Positions 19,383 to 49,429 of a stretch of DNA of 55,033 nt are shown one piece after another. A model generated the notes under the pieces. The model did no database searches. It was not told where the DNA came from and worked only from the letters and a program-made list of their open reading frames with translations. Origin of the DNA: a virus; the UHGV virus genome UHGV-0072939. One strand, 5' to 3'. The translations under genes and the position numbers were made by a program. Every line of letters begins with the position of its first letter. Positions within the stretch are counted from its first letter, which is position 1.

Positions 19383-21512
19383 TTATTGCGGCAGGAGTTT
19401 TGACAGTCGCTTACGTTTGACGGGTGCAGGCTCTTCAATAACGGCCCCCGGTAATTCGTAGCTGATGGTTTCTTCCGGTACGGCCGGCGCCAGCAGGAAT
19501 TTATCCGGATTGGCTTCCAGATTCGCGGCGCGCACGTTCAGCTTGAGCCCCATGTGCATCAGGCCACACAGCGCGGCGTAGCTATACACCCGGCAGTCGA
19601 GCGCTTCGTTTGCCCTGCCGGGAATGGCTTCCCAGACGCTGAAGCGCTGCCCGGCAATGACTTTGTACACAAGGCGCTCAGCCAGCAGCTGGTTGAAATA
19701 GCCGATATCCCGATCGTCAGGGAAATGCATATACCCCGGCGCGGCCATACCCGGCGCAGGTGGCTCGATATGCAGCCGCCCGCGGATCACATCCTTCGCG
19801 GAGTTGACCCCCAGAATGATCGGCCGGAACTGCGCCTTGCTCTTCGATGAAGGACGTTTGGTTGGCCAGACCGGATTTCGCTTGCCTCCTTGTGCCGATT
19901 CACCTTTGACAGCCCAGATTCGGCGGTTGAGCCGCTCTTTCGCAAACTCGTAGACCTTCTGGGTATGGTGACCGCCGGAGTCATGGCAGGCCGCCATAAT
20001 GGTCAGTCCCCTGCCATCGTTCCGGCGCCATATCTGCTTCAGGTACGCATCCAGACGCCGCCAGGGTTCATCCGTTTCCAGATCGCCGTAGATGACATCA
20101 TGGGAGACAGACCAGGACTCTTCGTTTTTACCCCAGCCCGTCACTTCGATTTCGAAGCGATCGTCCTGGGTATCAATCCCGGCCGTCAGCAGGGCAACAC
20201 CATCCGGCACTTTCGCCGGAAAGACCTCCCTGCGGGCCAGCAGGATATCCACCGGCAGCTGCTTGCCGTGGTTTGGTCGGTGCGGCAGTCCCATCTGGGT
20301 ATTCCACCAGGCCTGCTCTTTATCCGGGTCTCCCTTCGCTTTGATGTATTTTTCAGCGATGTCAGCGGGTTTATCCTTCTGCCAGGGGCTGAACAACTTG
20401 GACGCCTGGTACCCGGCATGGTGGTTATCGACCGCTTCACGCCCACAGTCAGGACAGATGGCGCGGTAAACCGCATGGCGTTCAGATTCCGACCATCGCC
20501 ATACTTTTTCAATGCTGCCGTCATCCTCTGCCCGCCAGGCCAGATCATAATCCATCAGCGGTGAATGCCTTTCTCCGCAGCACTCGAACGGCCGGGTCTG
20601 ATGCCAGCGAATGGTCTGCAGAGCCCTTAGCCGCTCCCCCTCCGACCAGCCGGCACCACAGCACTCACAGTGGAGCATCGCTGATTTGGTCATGTGTTTA
20701 TCCCCGTCCTTCGGCCACTGGACGTGTTTAAAAAAGTCAGGAAACTGTCGGTGACCACAGTGCGGACACACCACCGAGGCCCGGCGCTGGTCAGATTCGG
20801 CATAGCTGTCGGCAATCCGGCTTTCGTCTTCCACCGTCGGCGAGCAGGCACGAACCGACAGCCAGGTGAGACCAAACGTCGCCGTGCGCTCTTCCGCCAG
20901 CGCAATGGGGTCGCCTTCGCGGGTGATCGGGTATTTATCCACCTCATCCGCCAGCAGGACACGAATCGGACGGCGCGCGAGGTTATCGGGACTACCGGCA
21001 CCCGCCAGCGCCAGAAAGCCGCCGGTGAACGCCTTATAGAGAATGGTTTCTTTCGAGCTCTTCTGCTTTGAGTCGCCGATGATTCTGCGCAGTGCCGGCG
21101 TCACCCTCACCAGCGGGCTGATGCGTTCCTTCGAGAACTGCTCGGCCGCTTCCTCTTTCGGCTGCAGCAGCAGTATCGGGCAGGGATCGAGATGCGCGAA
21201 ATAACCAAACAGGTTTTCCAGCAGCGCGGTTTTCATCAGCTGCGTGCAGCACATCACCGTAATGATGTGAACGCCTGATTCTGTCGCCGCCAGCATCGGG
21301 CCGCGGGCGATCTCCACGGTGGACGTCTCCCAGTTGCCCGACGTACTCCCGGCTTCCTTCGCCAGTTTGCGATAATCATCAGCCCACTGCGGAACGCTGA
21401 TCCTCGGCGGCGGCGTCCAGCCTTTTCGGACGCTCAGCTCAAGACGCTCAATCTTCTGCCGGGGTAAATTCTGGCTCTCCGAGGACTGAGATATGTTTGT
21501 GGACATGTTCAA
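19383..21512 (-). CDS. terminase large subunit, lambda gpA family
   Basis: 709 aa; size, position and recalled GpA family resemblance. Confidence 0.9.
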   Translation of the reverse strand: MNMSTNISQSSESQNLPRQKIERLELSVRKGWTPPPRISVPQWADDYRKLAKEAGSTSGNWETSTVEIARGPMLAATESGVHIITVMCCTQLMKTALLENLFGYFAHLDPCPILLLQPKEEAAEQFSKERISPLVRVTPALRRIIGDSKQKSSKETILYKAFTGGFLALAGAGSPDNLARRPIRVLLADEVDKYPITREGDPIALAEERTATFGLTWLSVRACSPTVEDESRIADSYAESDQRRASVVCPHCGHRQFPDFFKHVQWPKDGDKHMTKSAMLHCECCGAGWSEGERLRALQTIRWHQTRPFECCGERHSPLMDYDLAWRAEDDGSIEKVWRWSESERHAVYRAICPDCGREAVDNHHAGYQASKLFSPWQKDKPADIAEKYIKAKGDPDKEQAWWNTQMGLPHRPNHGKQLPVDILLARREVFPAKVPDGVALLTAGIDTQDDRFEIEVTGWGKNEESWSVSHDVIYGDLETDEPWRRLDAYLKQIWRRNDGRGLTIMAACHDSGGHHTQKVYEFAKERLNRRIWAVKGESAQGGKRNPVWPTKRPSSKSKAQFRPIILGVNSAKDVIRGRLHIEPPAPGMAAPGYMHFPDDRDIGYFNQLLAERLVYKVIAGQRFSVWEAIPGRANEALDCRVYSYAALCGLMHMGLKLNVRAANLEANPDKFLLAPAVPEETISYELPGAVIEEPAPVKRKRLSKLLPQ

Positions 21513-22011
21513 TCAGCACCTCTGTCATCCTGTCCGCCGGTACATCCAGATCAGCGGCCATCAGCGGCGCCACCCTGGACGGCCAGTTGAGCCAGGCATC
21601 ACGCTGCTGGCGAAAGGCGTTGAAAAGAACCTCCTCGGCAACCACCAGCTCAACGAGCTGGCCACTGTCTTTTTCGTACTGCAGTTTGGCCTGCAGGGCC
21701 ATATAGTTTTCGCGGATACGCGCCGCCTCCTCCCGCGAAAGGCCTGCGCCTTCGGTGAGCATTATCTGGCGTACGGTATTCCCGATGTCATCCCCGTCAT
21801 CATCGCTGGCAACAGGGGCTTTCTTTTTCTTCGCGTTCGAAGCGCGCGGGTCTTTGCCATCGCGGTTTTTCTTCAGTGCGGCATCGCTGGCCTGAACATC
21901 AATCAGGTCCCCATCCATCACAATGAAGCGACCCGCTTTAATCCAGCGTCCGATGGTCTTGCGATCGACACCCGAATGTTGTGCGTACTGACTCTGGTTC
22001 ATCGTGGTCAT
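21448..22011 (-). CDS. terminase small subunit, Nu1-like
   Basis: 187 aa; N-terminal HTH-like region (QYAQHSGVDRKTIGRWIKAG); overlaps start of the large subunit; adjacent to a repeat array. Confidence 0.7.
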   Translation of the reverse strand: MTTMNQSQYAQHSGVDRKTIGRWIKAGRFIVMDGDLIDVQASDAALKKNRDGKDPRASNAKKKKAPVASDDDGDDIGNTVRQIMLTEGAGLSREEAARIRENYMALQAKLQYEKDSGQLVELVVAEEVLFNAFRQQRDAWLNWPSRVAPLMAADLDVPADRMTEVLIEHVHKHISVLGEPEFTPAED

Positions 22012-22158
22012 GGGACATCACCTGGGACATTTTCAGGGGTGGGACATTTACCTGGGACATTTTTGCGATGTCCCACCGGAATGTCCCACTGGAATAAACA
22101 GGAATAGCCAGCACTGGTGCGGTGTCAGGCGCGATCGCCCCGGGTGGGACATGGGACA
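22011..22158. repeat. array of 7-8 copies of TGGGACA(T) in both orientations upstream of the terminase small subunit gene; candidate cosB/terminase-binding region
   Basis: copies read directly at 22011, 22023, 22040, 22053, 22145, 22152 (direct) and 22068, 22081 (inverted). Confidence 0.55.
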
Positions 22159-22252
22159 CAAATCTGAAACCTGTAGCTAGGAAAACACCGCGGCGCGCAA
22201 TGCCCGTGCAATATGATCCCCTCAGGAAGGACCCAAACCCACCGGGGTGGGG

Positions 22253-22606
22253 TCACAAGGCATGCTGGAAAAGAAAAATACGCGTGATGCTATCCTGACG
22301 GAAATGGAAACGATCGCGGGCAATGTTTAACAATCCACCCTCCCCGAACCGCTCAAACTCTTCGGCGCAGCGTATGGCGTCATCAAAAACATAAATATCG
22401 GGCGGCGGTAATGTGAGGCTTCTCACGTTGTCTGCGGGGAGAATACGGCCACCAAAGAGACCTGGGCGGATATTATTCACATCACGCATCGTAGGTACGA
22501 TTAATTGCACATGCAGACCAGCTGCTTCAAATCCACTCGCTAATGCCAGTGCGGCGCTTGTCATTCCACTATGGCGCTTAATAAGAATTGTTGCTGTGTT
22601 GCTCAT
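22253..22606 (-). CDS. hypothetical protein (117 aa)
   Basis: GAGGA SD before ATG 22606; no family recognised. Confidence 0.4.
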   Translation of the reverse strand: MSNTATILIKRHSGMTSAALALASGFEAAGLHVQLIVPTMRDVNNIRPGLFGGRILPADNVRSLTLPPPDIYVFDDAIRCAEEFERFGEGGLLNIARDRFHFRQDSITRIFLFQHAL

Positions 22607-22613
22607 GATGTCC

Positions 22614-23255
22614 TCATTTCGCTGTTCGGAGCGCCTCCGCTATAGCCTGATTCAATGCAGACGGTAGCAGCGCGTTGGCCATGGAGTTTGCCCGGTCCAT
22701 ATAGCCCAGCGTGGGTTTTACTGGCAACGCGTCACCAAAGCGGATAAGCAGTTTTGGCGTGCGTTGTTTAACCTTCTCCCGACGCGTTCCATTCGGCGAG
22801 CGTTTCGCCCGCTTCTTCCCTTTCCTGGTCCTGGCCTTTCTGCGCTGCCAGACGGCGTTAACACCACCGACATCACCGATGAAAACATTTGGCTTCGCCT
22901 TAAGCTGAGAAAGCTTGTTACGCGGCAGGTTGCCGAATTTATTCAGCTTAATGTCTTTGGGATTTAGCAGCGCGCTGCCATTGAGCTTATGTTCGCCGCC
23001 AAACTCAAACGGCTCGAGGTAATCCGCGGCAGTATCGCGAACGAACACTTTCGCGCGCAGACTGTTTTTTCGGGCAGCCACAGAGCCGACCGACTTCACG
23101 GTGAAAGGTGTGGGATTGTCCAGATGACGTTCGAACGCCGTTTTCTGAGCCGTTTCTATCTGCCGAACGACCTTTGTCATCGCCTGCGCAGTTGCGAATG
23201 GGATTTGTTTTTGCAGCTGCTGGAGCTGGCGGGATAAATCCTTCAGTGCCGCCAT
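22614..23255 (-). CDS. hypothetical basic protein (213 aa, Lys/Arg-rich centre)
   Basis: ORF with start at 23255..23253; no family recognised. Confidence 0.4.
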   Translation of the reverse strand: MAALKDLSRQLQQLQKQIPFATAQAMTKVVRQIETAQKTAFERHLDNPTPFTVKSVGSVAARKNSLRAKVFVRDTAADYLEPFEFGGEHKLNGSALLNPKDIKLNKFGNLPRNKLSQLKAKPNVFIGDVGGVNAVWQRRKARTRKGKKRAKRSPNGTRREKVKQRTPKLLIRFGDALPVKPTLGYMDRANSMANALLPSALNQAIAEALRTAK

Positions 23256-25607: not shown

Positions 25608-26660
25608 TTATGTCTGGTTGAGCGCCTGCAGCTCGCTGACCGTCTGAATAAATCGCTCGGTCTCAAGCTCTACGCCGATCGCCCGGCGCCCAAGCTCCAT
25701 TGCCGCTTTCACGGTGGAACCCGAGCCCATAAAAAAATCGGCTACCGTGTCGCCCGGCCTGCTGCTGGCGCTGATAATCTGCCTGAGCATGTCAGCAGGT
25801 TTTTCGCAGGGATGCTTCCCCGGGTAAAACTGCACAGGCTTGTGGGTCCATACGTCGGTATACGGAACCGAGACGGATACAGAGAAACAGCGCCGGAGAG
25901 TTTTGTATTCCTCCAACAGCGCTGAATATTTCCGGTTGAGCGACTGGTATGTGCCCACCAGCTGGTGGTGTGGATGTTCAAGTTCCTGCCGCTGGTGCTT
26001 TTCTGCCGCGATGCGGGTGAACAGCTGCTGCAGCGTCAGGTAATCATTCTCGTTCGGTAACTGCCACTGGCTGGCGCTAAACCAGTGCGAGACCATATTC
26101 TTTTTGCCCGTGGCGTCGGCGATAGCTTTGCTCGTTACGCCAAGTGCCTCGCGGGCGTTGCGGAAATAGTCAATCAGCGGCGTCATGACATGCTGCTTGA
26201 GCTCGTTGCTTTTGCGGTCGTAACCGTCATCCTTCTCTTTGTATGGTCCCGTGTGATGTTCAGCAAAAAGAATACGCTCGGTTGCCGGGAAGTAAGCGCG
26301 AAGGCTTTCTTTATTACAGCCATTCCAGCGGCCAGAGGGCTTTGCCCAGATAATATGATTCAGGACGTTGAACCGCGCCCGCATCATGATTTCAATATCA
26401 GATGCCAGTCGATGCCCGGAGAACAGATACAGGCAGCCGGCTGGTTTAAGCACTCGCCAGAATTCCGCCAGACATCCGTCAAGCCAGAGCAGGTAGTCCT
26501 CATCCCCTTTCCACTGGTTGTCCCATCCGTCCGGTTTCACTTTGAAGTAAGGCGGATCGGTAACAATCAGGTCAATGGAGTTGTCCGGGAGAGAAGCGAT
26601 GAAATGCAGACAGTCAGCGTTGATTAACTCAACACTGTTTATTTTTACAGTATTTTTCAT
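25608..26660 (-). CDS. orphan DNA methyltransferase, amino-methyltransferase (N6-adenine or N4-cytosine) with DPPY motif
   Basis: 350 aa; DPPY near N-terminus and FFMGSGST (AdoMet-binding) near C-terminus, i.e. beta-class motif order; no adjacent restriction endonuclease gene. Confidence 0.8.
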   Translation of the reverse strand: MKNTVKINSVELINADCLHFIASLPDNSIDLIVTDPPYFKVKPDGWDNQWKGDEDYLLWLDGCLAEFWRVLKPAGCLYLFSGHRLASDIEIMMRARFNVLNHIIWAKPSGRWNGCNKESLRAYFPATERILFAEHHTGPYKEKDDGYDRKSNELKQHVMTPLIDYFRNAREALGVTSKAIADATGKKNMVSHWFSASQWQLPNENDYLTLQQLFTRIAAEKHQRQELEHPHHQLVGTYQSLNRKYSALLEEYKTLRRCFSVSVSVPYTDVWTHKPVQFYPGKHPCEKPADMLRQIISASSRPGDTVADFFMGSGSTVKAAMELGRRAIGVELETERFIQTVSELQALNQT

Positions 26661-30943: not shown

Positions 30944-31330
30944 TCAGGCGGCTGCACCCGCCGGTTCGTATTGGCTGATCGTTATCTCAACCCTGCCTTT
31001 CGTCACCACTGGCCCCCACTCCACCAGCATGCGTTTTACCTGGCTGTCATCCTCCCACACGCCAGCATGTGTCAGCGCGTCAAACAGCGCTTTGTTGTAG
31101 TTGTCCAGATCCCGGCGGCGCGCGTCCGGCGGATACAGGGTGATTTCGACTGCAGCAGGCGCTGTTGATGGCTTCGGCAGCCTGCGCAGCTGCTCAATGA
31201 TCGCCGCGCAGGCCGCGCTCTGGTATTTGCGGCCGTCAGCACTGATAAGATGGCGCCCGGCCAGCGGCCCCTTGTTAGGGGCGCGCCAGTAGGTGTTAAC
31301 GCTCGGAGGAAACGGCAGCACCAGCTTCAT
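30944..31330 (-). CDS. rusA: Holliday junction resolvase RusA-like
   Basis: about 128 aa from ATG 31330 (MKLVLPFPPSVN...), characteristic RusA N-terminus and DxDN-containing core. Confidence 0.8.
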   Translation of the reverse strand: MKLVLPFPPSVNTYWRAPNKGPLAGRHLISADGRKYQSAACAAIIEQLRRLPKPSTAPAAVEITLYPPDARRRDLDNYNKALFDALTHAGVWEDDSQVKRMLVEWGPVVTKGRVEITISQYEPAGAAA

Positions 31331-33366
31331 GCCACCTCCCGCTGCGGATCCGCGCACATCTCAGGTAAGTTTGCCTCCACCAGCGCGCGGGCGAATGGTG
31401 GCGGGACGGCGTTGCCGCAGCGCGCGACCTGCTTATCCTTCGCGTAGCGGTTGCCCCGGTAGTCCTGATCGATAACGTAGCCATCCGGGAAGCCCTGGGC
31501 TTTGTACAACTCATGGGGCTGCAACATACGCATGCCGATATCAACAATCTGGTACTTAACACCCTCGATCGTCACCAGCCATTCGTCTTCGCTTTCCCCG
31601 CAGTAGGTTTCCAGGAATGTCCGAACCTCCCCTACATGCTGGCCGCCGGCGGTGATGGTTGGCATCGGTTCGTCCAGGCGCTGCCCGTCGCGGCATGTTC
31701 CCCTTAATTTGATTAGATGCGACGTCACCATCGCGCTATCAGCTTTTGTAGTCAGGGTTTGAATAGGCTCACTTACATCCCTAGGACGGCTCTGCCCGGC
31801 ACGACCGCCTACACCTACGACCTGTGCACTTACAAGTGCGTGGTGATCGACCGTCGTCACGGAGTGTGCTGGCTCATCCAGACCCACGCCCGGGCCCGTA
31901 TAATTCCCGCCGTAGTGCTTCGCCAGGAATGCGCTCACCGTTGCAAACTTATTGCCACCAGCGGTAACTGTGCCCAACGGGGTATCGATTTTCAGCACGT
32001 GCGGCTGCTGCCCCGGACGCTCACCGTAGCCCATCTGTATCAGGGTTGGTGTAACCAACTGGGATTTACCGCCACCACCCGCTGTGATGGTCGCACTCGG
32101 CTCATCCGCCCGGTGGCCGATACTGGCGCCGAACTGGCGGGCAATCACTGGCGTAACCAGGCAGGCGCGGGATTGCTTCAGGATAGTGTGGGCAGGCTTA
32201 TTCAGCGCGCGCGGCTTCGCCTGGTATTCGCTGCCGCCGTTGCCAGCCAGGAATGGTGTCAGCGCCGCCTCAACAACGCCTAGGGCATGACCATTCCCGC
32301 CCGGACGCGCCGATGTGCCAGCGGTCACCGTAGGAACCGGTTCGGTAACGGGTTGCCCGGTTGCGCCGGTGCGGAATTTAGTCAGGTGCGGTACCGCTAT
32401 CGCGTAGCCGTGGGTTTTGGTGATGGTCTGCAGCGGCGCGCCCAGCTCCTGACCACGAAAACAGTCATAGCTACCTTTCGTCGTGGTGTGGTTACATTTC
32501 ACGATGAACGGCGAGGCGCTCTCGATGACAAACCGCTGGATACCGCGCGCAATACGCTTCAGGGTATTTTCTGCCAGGGGCTTTTTGCGATCGAAGATAG
32601 AAAGCGCCGGGATATTCCAGTCGATACACTCCGCCGCGGTGCGCCACGGCGCCAGCCTGCCGCTCTGCACTTCCAGTGATTTCGGATCCCCGTGGGTCGG
32701 TTCAGGCCAGTGAATGGCTTTACCATCGCAGCGCATGACCATAAAGAAACGGCGACGGATTGTCGGCGCGCCATAGTCGCACGCGCGCAGCTCGCGATAA
32801 TCGACGTCATAGCCGAGCCCGGCAACCAGCTGTTGCGCCTGCCCGCTGCCAGGTTCAATAGAGAGAAATTCGCAGACCTCAGCCAGCGCCGGATGATCTG
32901 CCGGGATCCCCGTTGACAGCATAGCGACAAACGCCGTGAACGTTTCGCCAGCACGCGCAGGATCCGGGCGCATTTCGTCAGCCAGCAGCGGCCCCCACGT
33001 TTTAAACTCTTCGACGTTCTCCAGCATCATTACGCGTGGTCGCTTCGCCAGCGCCCAGCGGATAACTACCCACGCCAGCCCGCGGATTTCCTTCTTCACC
33101 GGCTTCGCGCCTTTCGCCTTTGAAAAATGGCGGCAGTCGGGGCTGAACCATGCCAGGCCAACAGGATGCGCGCCAGTGGCAGCAACCGGATCCACATCAA
33201 ACACCGATTCGCAGTAATGCAGCGTGTCGGGGTGGTTGGTCTTGTGCATGGCGATGGCGTTTTCGTCGTGGTTGATGGCAATATCCACGCTGCGCCCTAT
33301 GGCGAGTTCGATCCCGGTAGAGGCACCGCCGCCGCCGGCGAAGTTATCAACGATAATTTCACGCAC
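31327..33366 (-). CDS. DNA cytosine-5 methyltransferase with long C-terminal extension
   Basis: 679 aa; motif I FAGGGG, motif IV-like SPDCRHFS, motif VI ENV (MLENVEEF). Confidence 0.8.
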   Translation of the reverse strand: MREIIVDNFAGGGGASTGIELAIGRSVDIAINHDENAIAMHKTNHPDTLHYCESVFDVDPVAATGAHPVGLAWFSPDCRHFSKAKGAKPVKKEIRGLAWVVIRWALAKRPRVMMLENVEEFKTWGPLLADEMRPDPARAGETFTAFVAMLSTGIPADHPALAEVCEFLSIEPGSGQAQQLVAGLGYDVDYRELRACDYGAPTIRRRFFMVMRCDGKAIHWPEPTHGDPKSLEVQSGRLAPWRTAAECIDWNIPALSIFDRKKPLAENTLKRIARGIQRFVIESASPFIVKCNHTTTKGSYDCFRGQELGAPLQTITKTHGYAIAVPHLTKFRTGATGQPVTEPVPTVTAGTSARPGGNGHALGVVEAALTPFLAGNGGSEYQAKPRALNKPAHTILKQSRACLVTPVIARQFGASIGHRADEPSATITAGGGGKSQLVTPTLIQMGYGERPGQQPHVLKIDTPLGTVTAGGNKFATVSAFLAKHYGGNYTGPGVGLDEPAHSVTTVDHHALVSAQVVGVGGRAGQSRPRDVSEPIQTLTTKADSAMVTSHLIKLRGTCRDGQRLDEPMPTITAGGQHVGEVRTFLETYCGESEDEWLVTIEGVKYQIVDIGMRMLQPHELYKAQGFPDGYVIDQDYRGNRYAKDKQVARCGNAVPPPFARALVEANLPEMCADPQREVA

Positions 33367-44479: not shown

Positions 44480-47400
44480 TCAGAACGACCAGTTCACACC
44501 AGCTACCGCGTTCCACGGGGATTCCACACCGGCACTATGGCTATACCCCACCCCAAGATGCCCGCTTAACGTACTGCTGAATGAGGCTTTAATACCTGCC
44601 TGGTATATTCCACGTCTGCCCGACAAATAATTGACGAAATTACCGTCACTATTCACTTTCACCCGGTTATCATCGACAAATTCTTTGCGCACAGCCGCCT
44701 TCAGCCACGGCTCAACTTCCATACCGTTCCCCAGACGCATGTTGTAACTCAGCGTTGCGCCCAGTTCACGATATATACTGCGGGTATCGACTGATTTCGA
44801 TTTCATGCCATTGGATAAATGATATTCGGGGTTATCAGCGGTGAACCCCGTTAACGATGCATACGGCGTCAGGTTCCAGTTACCATCGGTAAATCGCATC
44901 CCGGTTTCAATGTGACCGCCCAGCCCGTTGCTGTGGTAACTGCCATTGGCGGCTCCACCGCTGCTCATTTTACCTGCTACGTTACTTTTAAAACGGTTCA
45001 GCTTCACGACACCGTCCAGATAGAAACCACTTTCATGTTCCCAACTGGCATAGCCGCCCAGAGAATAACTGCCCACACTGCCATGTCCTCCGCGATCAAA
45101 ACCGATATGTGAATGGGAATAGCCCATAAAAGCGCCTAGCGTGGTAATTCCTTCAGGAATATCATTACGGCTGTCGATCCCCACTGTCATTCCGGTCAGC
45201 GTCTGCTCAAACCCGGCACCCGCATCGGTGGTGACATTATTACGGGTGTTATACGTCGCCCCCCAGACATTATTGTTGTGTGGACTCGCTTTCATTATGT
45301 TCAACCGCTCGCGAATACTGTTTAGCTCAGCATCAAATACCAACGGTAATGTTGCTGCCATATTGAGTACGGCTGCCGTAGAAGGCGTAATGCGTTTCTC
45401 CGGAACGGGTGTCGGCGTTGGATCGGGAGTAGGGTCTGGTTTTGGATTTGGGTCTGGCTTTGGATCGGGTTTTGGGTCTGGCTTTGGATTTGGGATGGGG
45501 TCCGGGTTGGGTTTGACATCATTGGTCAGGTTCCAGTTGCTGTTGCCGTCACTTTTCAGGACATACTCATAGGTCCCAAGATCAACGAAACCGCCGGTAT
45601 TGCCCAGCGTAAACGAAGCATCCCCTCCCCCTGTTTTCACCAGCGTCATCGCGTCGTCAGACTGTGGGCTGACGCCGGTATCCTGAACAAAGATTTTAAA
45701 ATTACCAGTGGCGTTGTTGTTGACGACCAGTTGATCGCCCCGGGAGCCTGCAACGTTGGTATGCAGGTAGAAATTACCGCTACCGGAAAGTTCATTGGTT
45801 GTCAGCGTATTGTAGATACCGTTAGTTGTGGCAGGCGCTGCTGTTTGTGCTGACAAATAAACATCACCGTCGTTGAGTAGCAAACTGTTTACTCTATATT
45901 CGCAGTTGCTGGTACCTGCACAGGAATTATTGCTGTTAAGCCAGACACTGCCCCGGCTGGCAGCCGTCAGGTCGGCAAGCGTGGTATCGACGCCATTTCC
46001 CAGAGTCAATGTCGCGCTATCGGTAATCCGGACCGCCCCTTCGAGTTTAACTGGCGTAACATTATCCCGTGGCGTCATTAACGACAGGCTTCCTGTCGCG
46101 CCACTGACCGATGCATCCGCCAGCGTACCTGCGTAGACGATTGCCGTACCGCCAGCGACCTGGAGATCTTCTGCCCGGGCCAGAGCCTGAAACTCATCTT
46201 TTGACCGCCCAAGGGTATATTGCCCGCCAGAGTTAACCTTTGTGGCGGAGTCCTGACCCAGGTTTTGCATTGCCCCACCCTTGCCAACCGTGGAGTCGCG
46301 AGCTTCGGTACCTGCTAATACCAATAAATTACCGCCATTTTCCAGCAACATATTAGTCGCTAAATTGCCGGAAATGGAAAAAGTACCGTACTGGTGAGTA
46401 CCGCTGATTTCAATACCGTTAGCCGTGCTCGTCTGGAGAGCGGCACCGCTGTTCTGGACGATATCTGTCGCTTTGCCATTATCGTTGACTGTCAGCGTAC
46501 CGCCTTCATTGATCTTTGTTTTTATTGCCTCTCCGTTAGCTGAAACTGTTTGTATTCCGCCGTCGTTAATTGTTGTCTCATTCGCCACACCCTCGACAAT
46601 TTGTTCACCGCCGGTGAGCGTCGTGCCTGTCGCAGTGGCTTTTGTTTTGACGATCTCCCGTCCGCCCATATTGACCTGTGTTTTGTCAGAAGAGGTGTCT
46701 GACTCCACGGTTAACACGCCGCCATTTGCCAGCAGGATATTGTTCGCCGCACCCTGCTCGATGCTGAACGCGACGCCATCCGCGCGTGTTCCTGTGACCC
46801 GCGTCGCCCTGGTGGTTGCAACCAAAGCGCCCTGGCTACTCTGCTGTATCCCCGTTGCGCTGCCTTTCTCCCGCACATCGAGTGTGCCGCCGTCATTAAG
46901 CACCGAGTTTTCAGCCAGACCGCCCTCATTAACTACCTGTGAACCCCCATTAATAATGGAACCTTCCGCTGTCCCGTTTGCCATAATTTGTTGTAGGCCA
47001 GAGACGATATCGGTATTGATTGCCTTACCATAATTCTGAACGGTTTGCGTGCCACCATTGATGTGTGTTTTCTCTGTTGACCCACCATCAACAATTTGTT
47101 CACCACTTTCGATATTTGCTTCAGTGGCTAAACCATATACCGTTTGCTTGCCACCTTTGATATTTGCTTTATCAGAAGTGGCACTGGCATATATTGTTTG
47201 GGTGCCAGCACTATTGAGTACAGTGCCAACATCTTTTCCATAAACATCCATTTTGCCGTTGGCATTAATAATCGTGTCAACTGCGCGGGAACCAGTGACG
47301 ACTGTTAATGAGCCAGCGTTTTCCAGCACTACATTTTTAGCTTCTGAATTCCTGATGTAGAAAGCATCACCATAACTGTTGGTTCCTTCGATAAGTGTTC

Positions 47401-49060
47401 CGGAGGTCGTGGAAGCAATTAATGCGCCGCCGGATTGTTGCTCAACATGCTTAGCCTCACCACCGTCCTGAACCTCCAGAACGCCGCCATTATTAAGTCT
47501 GGTGCTATCTGTTTTAGCCTCCTTCTGGACAATCAGCTTACCGCCAGTATCAATGGTAGTATTTTTCGCCGAGGTTTTAGCCACTACCGTCAGTTCGCCG
47601 GTATTTTCCAGCACAACATAATTAGCCTCCCCTCCGGTAATAGTGAAGTGAGAGAGCTTGTTGTATCCTTCGATATCAGTCCCTGCACCCGTGTTGGCAA
47701 CTAAAGCACTGCCCGTCTCCTGGTTAACCCCATGTGCAATACCGCCGGTATAGACAATCAGCGAGCCTCCGGCGCTAATATTGCTGCCAATTGCCGTACC
47801 ATCTTTCTCAACAACCTGCCGGCTCCCGGAGGATATAATTGTTGTGTCAGCTTTCCCGCCGCTTTTGATATTTTGCGTTCCGCTGTTGATATTGGTGCCT
47901 GTGGCTATGCCATAATTATTAATATTCTGTGTGCCACCATTAATTATGGTATTTGTCGCGTTTCCTGCAACATCCATAACCCCGCCATTATCTATTCGGG
48001 TCGCATCAGCTTTAGCATTGGTTAAAACTGACATTGTTCCTTTATCTTTAATAATCGTCTTGTTTGCCGAACCATATGCGTTTATGTCTAAATGACCACC
48101 GTTTTCCAGCAACACATTGTCTGCCACGTGATTGTGGATGGAGAATGCACCTTCACTATTCGTACCGCTCACCGTCGTACCGTTAGTGTTAGTTTTTAAA
48201 ATTGCACCATCGTGCTGGGTAACATTTGTTGCCGTACCACCACTAACATCAAGCACGCCACCAGAATAAACTTCAATAACATCCGAGGTGCTGGTGTTAT
48301 CAACAATTTGCGTGCCACCAGAATAGATATGCGTATTTTTTGCCGTTGACTTACTATTCAGAGACTGAGTTCCGCCTTCAATCGTCGTGTCCAGCGCACG
48401 GCTCTCATATACTCTTTGCTCACCGCCATTTTTAATGGTTGTTGTTTCTACTGTGCTCTGTTCAACATACTGTCGACCACCATTTATGGTTGTGTTCGTT
48501 GCCAGACTTCCTTGTACTACGTCCTGAGAGCCAGACTTATTTATCGTTGTACCATCAGCATGCCCTTGAACTTTTACTATCTGGCTACCACCATCAATGA
48601 GTATTCCATTCGCACTCCCTCCCTCTACGCGTGAAGCACCGCCCTTAATTGTCGTTCCATTGCTGATACCCCCTTTATAAACGTCCTGATTGCCACTCTC
48701 GATTGTCGTACCTGTGGAAATACCCCCGTCATGAATTGACTGTCTGCCACCGTTAATGGTTGTATTATTAGCCTGCCCCACAAAATTGTTATGACTTCCT
48801 ATATCTTGATATCCACCAGATTCAATAAGACTTCCATTAGATACCCCGCCATGAACATTCTGCTGGCCATGGTTGATAATATGAGTGTTATTTGTTGTAC
48901 CTCGTTCATCCACTTTTTGGTTGCCATCTACAGTCTCATCGTTTACCACACCAATAACATTAGTAGTGAAGGCAGCCATCCCGGGCGGGGCATATATCAA
49001 GGCAGATATCAATAAGGAAAGTACTGAGCGGCGACAATAATAGGGACTGGTCCTGTTCAT
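44480..49060 (-). CDS. ypjA: AIDA-I type autotransporter adhesin (type Va secretion)
   Basis: ORF 44480-49189; favoured start ATG 49060 (GAGG 9 nt upstream) giving MNRTSPYY... signal region; repetitive GG.Q.V passenger repeats, PKPDPKPDP linker, C-terminal beta-barrel ending NWSF; ypjA assignment from memory. Confidence 0.85.
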   Translation of the reverse strand: MNRTSPYYCRRSVLSLLISALIYAPPGMAAFTTNVIGVVNDETVDGNQKVDERGTTNNTHIINHGQQNVHGGVSNGSLIESGGYQDIGSHNNFVGQANNTTINGGRQSIHDGGISTGTTIESGNQDVYKGGISNGTTIKGGASRVEGGSANGILIDGGSQIVKVQGHADGTTINKSGSQDVVQGSLATNTTINGGRQYVEQSTVETTTIKNGGEQRVYESRALDTTIEGGTQSLNSKSTAKNTHIYSGGTQIVDNTSTSDVIEVYSGGVLDVSGGTATNVTQHDGAILKTNTNGTTVSGTNSEGAFSIHNHVADNVLLENGGHLDINAYGSANKTIIKDKGTMSVLTNAKADATRIDNGGVMDVAGNATNTIINGGTQNINNYGIATGTNINSGTQNIKSGGKADTTIISSGSRQVVEKDGTAIGSNISAGGSLIVYTGGIAHGVNQETGSALVANTGAGTDIEGYNKLSHFTITGGEANYVVLENTGELTVVAKTSAKNTTIDTGGKLIVQKEAKTDSTRLNNGGVLEVQDGGEAKHVEQQSGGALIASTTSGTLIEGTNSYGDAFYIRNSEAKNVVLENAGSLTVVTGSRAVDTIINANGKMDVYGKDVGTVLNSAGTQTIYASATSDKANIKGGKQTVYGLATEANIESGEQIVDGGSTEKTHINGGTQTVQNYGKAINTDIVSGLQQIMANGTAEGSIINGGSQVVNEGGLAENSVLNDGGTLDVREKGSATGIQQSSQGALVATTRATRVTGTRADGVAFSIEQGAANNILLANGGVLTVESDTSSDKTQVNMGGREIVKTKATATGTTLTGGEQIVEGVANETTINDGGIQTVSANGEAIKTKINEGGTLTVNDNGKATDIVQNSGAALQTSTANGIEISGTHQYGTFSISGNLATNMLLENGGNLLVLAGTEARDSTVGKGGAMQNLGQDSATKVNSGGQYTLGRSKDEFQALARAEDLQVAGGTAIVYAGTLADASVSGATGSLSLMTPRDNVTPVKLEGAVRITDSATLTLGNGVDTTLADLTAASRGSVWLNSNNSCAGTSNCEYRVNSLLLNDGDVYLSAQTAAPATTNGIYNTLTTNELSGSGNFYLHTNVAGSRGDQLVVNNNATGNFKIFVQDTGVSPQSDDAMTLVKTGGGDASFTLGNTGGFVDLGTYEYVLKSDGNSNWNLTNDVKPNPDPIPNPKPDPKPDPKPDPNPKPDPTPDPTPTPVPEKRITPSTAAVLNMAATLPLVFDAELNSIRERLNIMKASPHNNNVWGATYNTRNNVTTDAGAGFEQTLTGMTVGIDSRNDIPEGITTLGAFMGYSHSHIGFDRGGHGSVGSYSLGGYASWEHESGFYLDGVVKLNRFKSNVAGKMSSGGAANGSYHSNGLGGHIETGMRFTDGNWNLTPYASLTGFTADNPEYHLSNGMKSKSVDTRSIYRELGATLSYNMRLGNGMEVEPWLKAAVRKEFVDDNRVKVNSDGNFVNYLSGRRGIYQAGIKASFSSTLSGHLGVGYSHSAGVESPWNAVAGVNWSF

Positions 49061-49429
49061 AAATTTCATCCTCTGAAAAGTGAATACTGAGTAGCGTTTA
49101 AGCGACCTTAGCTTTGCTGCAACATCAGCCCACAGGCACCAGACCAGGGGATTCATCCTGAAGAGACAGCGCAAGTGTATTGTGTTCACCGCTCATCAAA
49201 GACATCATGATGAAATGATGATATTCCGCATAAGAATGAGGCATTTTTTAAACGCAGTGCGCTGAAGTGTGGTTGGATAAAAAAGTCAATCCATTCAGGA
49301 AATACGGGCGTATTCTTTTCTTTCGACAATGAGGCCGTTGGCAAAATAAAATGATTTACATAATCGTTTCTGATGAATATCTTCTGCTCACATAAAAATC
49401 ACACAATAACTTTGAGATCGCAGATTGTT

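Follow-up and report, generated by a model that had tools for sequence, protein, structure and literature searches.

Eight copies of a heptamer beside a predicted cosN form the probable cosB of a lambda-type cos in a temperate myovirus-type prophage

Introduction

Directly in front of the terminase small subunit gene (terS) of a prophage lies a dense array of the heptamer TGGGACA, which raises the question of whether these repeats belong to the site at which DNA packaging begins. A preliminary description of the locus had counted eight heptamers (six direct and two inverted) in approximately 150 bp from the terS start codon, had read the array as a cosB-like terminase recognition region, and had expected cosN within about 100 bp to its right (22160-22250). 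All positions given here are those of the window, that is, the whole 55,033-bp stretch of DNA that was analysed. The window contains a prophage of approximately 44 kb encoding an integrase, a CI-like repressor, a tail sheath and an E-type capsid protein, and the genes relevant here all lie on its minus strand.

Results and Discussion

Organization of the heptamer array

TGGGACA occurs 13 times on the two strands of the window, compared to 6.7 copies expected from dinucleotide-preserving shuffles, and 8 of the 13 exact copies fall within the 148 bp from 22011 to 22158, where approximately 0.02 would be expected. The number, orientation and positions of the repeats given in the preliminary description were thereby confirmed (Table 1). 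A repeat search independently returned the same TGGGACA families, and seven of the eight array copies share the longer form TGGGACAT. No copies with one mismatch were found within or beside the array, the sole one in 21301-22700 being located at 21326, inside terL; the array copies are therefore sharp rather than degenerate. The array is not uniform in its layout. Read in terS sense (minus strand), the order of elements is cosQ, 24 nt, cosN, a 33-nt conserved segment, a doublet of abutting heptamers, a 56-bp spacer, two inverted copies, four direct copies proximal to the gene, and the terS ATG, with the last base of the final heptamer (22011-22017) serving as the A of that ATG. The distal doublet keeps a fixed distance to cosN in every heptamer class found among the relatives described below, many of which have a short cosB with the doublet as its sole repeat.

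Table 1. Predicted cos elements, heptamer copies and terminase genes in the window
Feature	Position	Strand	Details
terL, 709 aa, lambda gpA type	19383..21512	-	Pfam GpA_ATPase E 7e-65, GpA_nuclease E 1e-77
terS, 187 aa	21448..22011	-	PHROG_57 terminase small subunit, E 1e-35
TGGGACA, plus-strand copies	22011, 22023, 22040, 22053, 22145, 22152	+	exact-match scan
TGGGACA, minus-strand copies	22069, 22082	-	exact-match scan
Four direct heptamers, spacing 13, 17, 12 bp	22011..22059	-	TGTCCCA in terS sense
Inverted heptamer pair, 13 bp apart	22069..22088	-	TGGGACA in terS sense; R2-like orientation
Spacer, 56 bp	22089..22144	.	includes palindrome GGCGCGATCGCCCC (22128-22141)
Distal doublet TGTCCCATGTCCCA	22145..22158	-	bp 46-59 from the cohesive end, equal to the lambda R3 position
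I2-like conserved segment GCGGTGTTTTCCTAGCTACAGGTTTCAGATTTG, 33 nt	22159..22191	-	aligns with lambda CGCGGGTTTTCGCTATTTATGAAAATTTT
cosN, predicted 12-nt 5' cohesive end GCATTGCGCGCC	22192..22203	-	identity to BZS1 cosL
cosQ-like heptamer GGGTCCT	22228..22234	-	within GGGTCCTTCC (22225-22234); same sequence as lambda cosQ

Predicted location of cosN and cosQ

The 12-mer GCATTGCGCGCC occurs once in the window and stands, in terS sense, in a conserved block with CACGG directly before it and GCGG directly after it; the same flanks border it in Serratia phage vB_SspM_BZS1 (BZS1). The 5' cohesive ends of BZS1, with the overhang GCATTGCGCGCC, were determined with PhageTerm and confirmed by a PCR product across the prophage cos compared to the virion DNA ends (PMC7556043), and bases 1-12 of the BZS1 sequence record are annotated as the left cohesive end. 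Because the window has the exact BZS1 cohesive-end 12-mer together with identical flanks, cosN can be placed at 22192-22203, inside the interval that the preliminary description had proposed for it. For comparison with lambda, the two ends of NC_001416 were joined and the resulting cos was aligned with the window and its relatives. This alignment would put the nicks 1 nt further left than the BZS1 annotation does, which would give the shifted 12-mer GGCATTGCGCGC; in the BZS1 register, cosQ is separated from the cohesive end by 24 nt, compared to 23 nt in lambda, in an alignment that is free of gaps. The I2-like segment on the other side of cosN is kept across loci with different heptamers, those of betaproteobacteria included.

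Ends of metagenomic contigs were considered as a proxy for virion ends, and none of the contigs among the relatives ends at cosN. One (L011) breaks just before the doublet, and other metagenomic contigs of relatives end 300-770 bp upstream.

Terminase genes and their neighbourhood

Both domain matches of the large terminase subunit (TerL) exceed the curated cut-offs, which identifies it as a gpA-type enzyme, and by this protein the closest isolated phages are BZS1 and Citrobacter phage phiNP, at approximately 50% identity. Genes for a head-tail adaptor and a portal protein of the lambda family come after the two terminase genes, which are preceded, in the sense of transcription, by lysis genes, a conserved gene for a 213-aa protein (PHROG_1924) and a 117-aa ORF.

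Almost every source record lists the small subunit (TerS) as a "hypothetical protein", and it gave no significant match in sequence searches of Pfam, NCBIfam and PDB. It has no match to Pfam Phage_Nu1, and its similarity to lambda Nu1 is marginal, with a BLASTP E-value of 0.044 over the N-terminal 31 aa and an hhalign probability of 5.7%, so that by sequence it does not group with Nu1-type proteins. An AlphaFold2 model built from a 20-sequence alignment reached moderate confidence (mean pLDDT 67, approximately 78 in the N-domain) and has a beta-alpha-alpha-beta-beta-alpha N-domain, a disordered linker at residues 57-73 and a helical C-terminal part. The modelled N-domain is a winged helix-turn-helix of the MerR- or excisionase-like kind, and it matches the DNA-binding domains of terminase small subunits, that of lambda TerS among them. 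As modelled, the N-domain of TerS is thus a Nu1-type winged helix-turn-helix by fold and not by sequence; because the sequence searches and the profile comparison are unconvincing, it is from the fold that homology between TerS and Nu1 is argued.

Several further genes of the window are worth recording. The gene for the 213-aa protein (22614-23255, minus strand; PHROG_1924, 'minor tail protein') is always the final conserved one ahead of cos, whether the relative is enterobacterial or betaproteobacterial, and it stands apart from the other structural genes; the same placement has been noted for p72 of BZS1 (PMC7556043). The 117-aa ORF (22253-22606, minus strand), which lies between this gene and cosQ, has no match in Pfam, PHROGs, NCBIfam or PADLOC. 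In loci L009 and L012, the end of the 213-aa gene is 30-60 nt away from cosQ, and L001 and BZS1 have other small inserts at this place, which has the look of a slot for moron insertion at the right end of the genome. Two DNA methyltransferase genes are present on the minus strand (25608-26660 and 31327-33366), one of the N6/N4 type and one of the C5-cytosine type, the latter with a long extension (679 aa) fused to its C-terminus. Directly outside the integrase end of the prophage, a gene for a 1569-aa autotransporter of the AIDA/pertactin type is located at 44480-49189 (minus strand).

Conservation of the cos region and covariation of heptamer and TerS

Relatives were collected by TerS scans, with a yield of 42 loci in genomes and 80 in viral contigs, and by a second survey anchored on a 17-mer around cosN rather than on TerS, which gave 119 further loci. 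Five of the latter (L145, L180, L196, L204 and L217) have neither the conserved flank nor a heptamer array nor a downstream TerS-like ORF, and were therefore set aside as chance matches. A megablast search of 21400-22700 against the phage collection returned no match, and phiNP was found only by blastn with the cos block. One relative, L003 (NZ_JBQPOM010000071.1), has a TerS 92% identical to that of the window and the same cos region as the enterobacterial prophages on a 226-kb contig; since the record is named 'Vagococcus sp. WN89Y', a Firmicute, the assembly is probably mislabelled or contaminated.

The TGTCCCA array is retained in all relatives whose TerS is at least 66% identical. Over 55 distinct related sequences, identity to the window reaches 98.6% in heptamer columns, compared to 74.4% in spacer columns (Mann-Whitney p = 1e-14), and cosQ and cosN are conserved at 100% and 99.8%, respectively, with 66% for the stretch between them. 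Further relatives carry other heptamers, and the type of heptamer follows the helix-turn-helix of TerS. All 62 distinct upstream regions belonging to TerS proteins with the helix-turn-helix GVDRKT[IV] contain at least five TGTCCCA and no GGTAACA, while all 37 belonging to proteins with [GN]VSRKT[VI]T contain at least two GGTAACA and no TGTCCCA. The N-terminus of TerS reads MNQSDFAKLHGVSRKTVTMWKSRGW in the GGTAACA class versus MTTMNQSQYAQHSGVDRKTIGRWIKAGRF in the window. Other pairs of helix and heptamer are CSDTLVRRA with GTTCGCA, SDTLVHRA with GTTTGCA, SRQAVLNW with CTTGACA, and SHTAVAKW with GTTTCA; when they are put in register, nnTnnCA is common to the heptamers. The large subunit, cosQ and cosN remain constant across the heptamer classes. 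As a prospective check, two TerS proteins with the DRKTI helix but only 57% and 61% identity overall were fetched afterwards, and both of their loci carry TGTCCCA arrays; the heptamer therefore tracks the helix class and not overall divergence.

Two side observations concern such pairs. SDTLVHRA with GTTTGCA (L033) and SDTLVRRA with GTTCGCA (L029 and L038) differ by one Arg/His change in the protein that is paired with one C/T change in the site. In addition, viral contig 3300029954_000144 (L197) represents a further class, with CDEKQVRRAIAAGKL in the TerS N-terminus and GTCCGCA repeats, of which five copies on either strand are found within approximately 310 nt after cosN and at least one more inside terS.

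Loci of the GGTAACA class from Raoultella, Edwardsiella, Xenorhabdus and Providencia, with TerS proteins 53-59% identical to that of the window, share the layout of the array: the cosN is the same, the doublet is equally far from it, and an AT-rich spacer, an inverted pair and a set of three or four direct copies follow. Compared to the proteins of this class, the window's TerS is 51% identical over residues 1-45 and approximately 80% identical over residues 85-187, and the latter value exceeds the C-terminal identity to several proteins with DRKT-type helices. The contrast is sharpest for an Edwardsiella prophage (L012) whose TerL is 96% identical and whose cosN block is 90% identical at the nucleotide level: between 22167 and 21640, which covers cosB and TerS residues 1 to approximately 124, nucleotide identity is 27-60%, whereas it is 90-100% beyond these limits. 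Judged by this alignment, the difference between the two prophages is a swapped cassette consisting of cosB and the N-terminal part of TerS.

A shorter arrangement, with the doublet alone or together with one more copy directly before the ATG, is found in many betaproteobacterial relatives and in BZS1 and phiNP. Two loci with a short BZS1-like cosB of three GGTAACA copies (L188 and L194) also have one inverted TGTTACC inside terS, approximately 215 nt after cosN. No intragenic copy of the heptamer was found in the terS of the window.

Interpretation of the locus and alternative explanations

We conclude that 22011-22234 is very probably the cos of a temperate myovirus-type prophage of approximately 44 kb related to BZS1 and phiNP, with the heptamers as its predicted TerS-binding cosB. 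The 12-mer and flanks at cosN are identical to an experimentally determined phage end, it is preceded by a cosQ heptamer at nearly the lambda distance of about 23 nt, and the repeats have the layout of a lambda-type cosB, being located between cosN and terS, having an inverted middle element and covarying with the TerS helix-turn-helix. The reading of the array as a cosB-like terminase recognition region is accordingly strengthened by the identity of cosN, the cosQ and flank that align with lambda, the covariation of heptamer and TerS, and the gpA-type TerL.

Other explanations for the heptamers were weighed against this one. It is improbable that they are operators through which another DNA-binding protein, for example a late-gene regulator of the phage or a factor of the host, controls transcription into the packaging and head operon. 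The last copy does sit between a Shine-Dalgarno-like AGGTGA and the terS ATG, and the repeat search showed that the four central copies make up an operator-like imperfect palindrome of 22 nt; however, no sigma-70-like promoter or terminator was found in 21800-22700, the doublet stays at a fixed distance from cosN that corresponds to lambda R3, and the motif changes exactly with the N-domain of TerS while cosN, cosQ, the C-terminal part of TerS, TerL and the 213-aa gene are conserved. An RNA role, in which the inverted copies would form a hairpin in the late transcript upstream of terS and control terS translation or transcript stability, is very unlikely. Although the predicted structure has a hairpin of two helices in which inverted copies pair with direct ones, the 171-nt repeat region folds no better than shuffled sequences (z = -1.2, with 22 of 200 shuffles folding as well), and the Rfam scan of the region gave no family at threshold and one sub-threshold chance match. 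Moreover, pairing cannot be the core function because many relatives have the direct doublet, with or without one more copy, and no inverted copy at all.

The repeats could also be imagined as a functionless product of local duplication or slippage that hitchhikes with the 5' end of terS, to which we give very little weight. Since the array adjoins the region coding for the TerS N-terminal part, linkage contributes to the co-inheritance of heptamer and TerS type; it could mimic functional covariation, and could alone account for co-inheritance of repeats that do nothing. Against this stand the much stronger conservation of heptamers (98.6%) than of spacers (74%), the recurrence of the layout of doublet, spacer, inverted pair and direct copies in another class, where it is made of a different heptamer, and the existence of at least six independent pairs of heptamer and helix-turn-helix, two of which differ from each other by a single residue and a single base pair. 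That the array is a pac site used for headful packaging, and not part of a cos, is the least probable of all: multi-copy TerS-binding repeats are typical of some pac sites, but TerL is of the gpA type, cosQ is conserved, and BZS1 has defined 12-nt 5' cohesive ends of identical sequence.

Proposed packaging mechanism

If the locus is a cos, the N-terminal winged helix-turn-helix of TerS would bind the eight cosB heptamers, and the heptamer-bound TerS would bring the gpA-type large subunit into place for nicking at cosN, approximately 45 bp away. Nicking would produce 12-nt 5' cohesive ends, although the exact nick positions in the prophage are taken from the comparisons above; packaging would then proceed from cosN through terS and terL, and cosQ (22228-22234) would function in ending packaging when the next cos is reached. 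The orientations would follow the logic of lambda, where R3 and R1 point one way and R2 the other, built here from multi-copy units of 7-8 bp. The stoichiometry of the complex and any bending or wrapping of DNA by TerS are conjectural.

The IHF consensus WATCAANNNNTTR was searched for in the window spacer, where the best match has three mismatches, and in the spacers of 11 relatives, where the best matches have two or three; in both cases these are no better than in shuffled sequences. The scan covered the window and these 11 relatives, and L128 was left out since no exact inverted copy marks the limit of a spacer there. A palindrome directly follows the distal doublet (GGCGCGATCGCCCC in the window, GTGCATAnnTATGCAC at the same place in other TGTCCCA-class loci, L008-L010 and L129), and a bending factor that replaces IHF may act there. 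A tentative proposal is that the multi-copy heptamer cosB represents an IHF-independent way of building the packaging-initiation complex, in which several TerS winged-helix domains would bind head-to-tail and head-to-head on short repeats, both direct and inverted, with the DNA wrapped or looped around a TerS oligomer. The MerR-like protein BldC binds direct repeats and offers a model for head-to-tail binding of TerS.

Novelty and implications

The kind of element described here, a lambda-type cos, is ordinary, and it is the architecture of its cosB that appears undescribed. What sets the locus apart is the combination of eight sites of 7-8 bp, no recognisable IHF site, and a TerS family that matches PHROG_57 and lies outside Pfam and NCBIfam. 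An eight-site heptamer cosB was not found by full-text literature searches or by a term search of the BZS1 paper.

These results locate the origin of packaging, and probably the ends of the genome, in a family of enterobacterial prophages that is widespread and almost unannotated. They also show that the principle known from lambda and phage 21 reaches well beyond lambdoid siphoviruses, with cosB and the DNA-binding domain of TerS exchanged as a unit in a myovirus lineage of Enterobacterales and Burkholderiales. The way in which lambda TerS reads DNA has been hard to study biochemically, and the natural specificity variants found here are a resource for understanding how a small terminase does so. 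In practice, cos sites can be annotated by means of the conserved block from cosQ to cosN and the heptamers specific to each class, and both also allow predictions of possible cross-packaging among prophages or of satellites. Should the IHF-independent reading hold, the at least six pairs of heptamer and recognition helix, including the change of R to H that goes with C to T, would be a ready system for decoding TerS-DNA recognition and a series for engineering packaging specificity.

Comparison with known systems

Lambda has the same order of cosQ, cosN, conserved flank, cosB, terS and terL, with an identical cosQ (GGGTCCT), and the two sequences align without gaps from cosQ through the right flank, which is CGCGGGTTTTCGCTA in lambda and CGCGGTGTTTTCCTAGCTA in the window. 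The cohesive end itself is unrelated, as GGGCGGCGACCT of lambda and either GCATTGCGCGCC or GGCATTGCGCGC of the window agree at approximately 3 of 12 positions; at that level of agreement, the prophage falls outside the 'lambda-like phages' in the sense of Feiss (PMC4669245), whose cohesive ends are similar to lambda's. In lambda, bp 56, 58 and 59 are the critical positions of R3, and R2 is oriented opposite to R3 and R1 (PMC4669245). The window resembles lambda in having its first repeat element at the R3 position and a middle element inverted relative to the distal and proximal ones, and differs from it in having eight sites of 7-8 bp in place of three sites of approximately 16 bp. In addition, lambda has the IHF site I1 between R3 and R2, and no recognisable counterpart of this site was found in the window. 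The large subunits of both belong to the gpA family, and the modelled N-domain of the window's TerS has the fold of lambda TerS; however, the window phage has a contractile tail, and its TerS matches no Nu1 sequence model.

BZS1 and phiNP are closer relatives, with identical cosN 12-mers and flanks, the same cosQ and I2-like segment, and the 213-aa gene upstream of cos in both. They differ from the window in the heptamer (GGTAACA), in a short cosB of three copies (the doublet and one before the ATG), and in the class of the TerS N-domain. In a term search of the BZS1 paper, 'cos' was found three times, each time for the cos site, and no mention of a cosB or a repeat array was found (PMC7556043). 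A further parallel is provided by N15, which has a simple cosB with an rR2 element inside terS, compared to the complex cosB of lambda (PMC4669245). The simple form parallels the relatives that have the R3-position element alone, some of them with an inverted copy inside terS, and the window corresponds to the complex form.

Lambda and phage 21 have cosQ and cosN in common and differ in cosB and in the recognition helix of TerS (PMC4669245). The same modular exchange distinguishes the window from the Edwardsiella prophage, which share cosN, cosQ and TerL and have different heptamers and different N-terminal parts of TerS. The present case differs in that at least six classes are recognised, from their sequences, across Enterobacterales and Burkholderiales.
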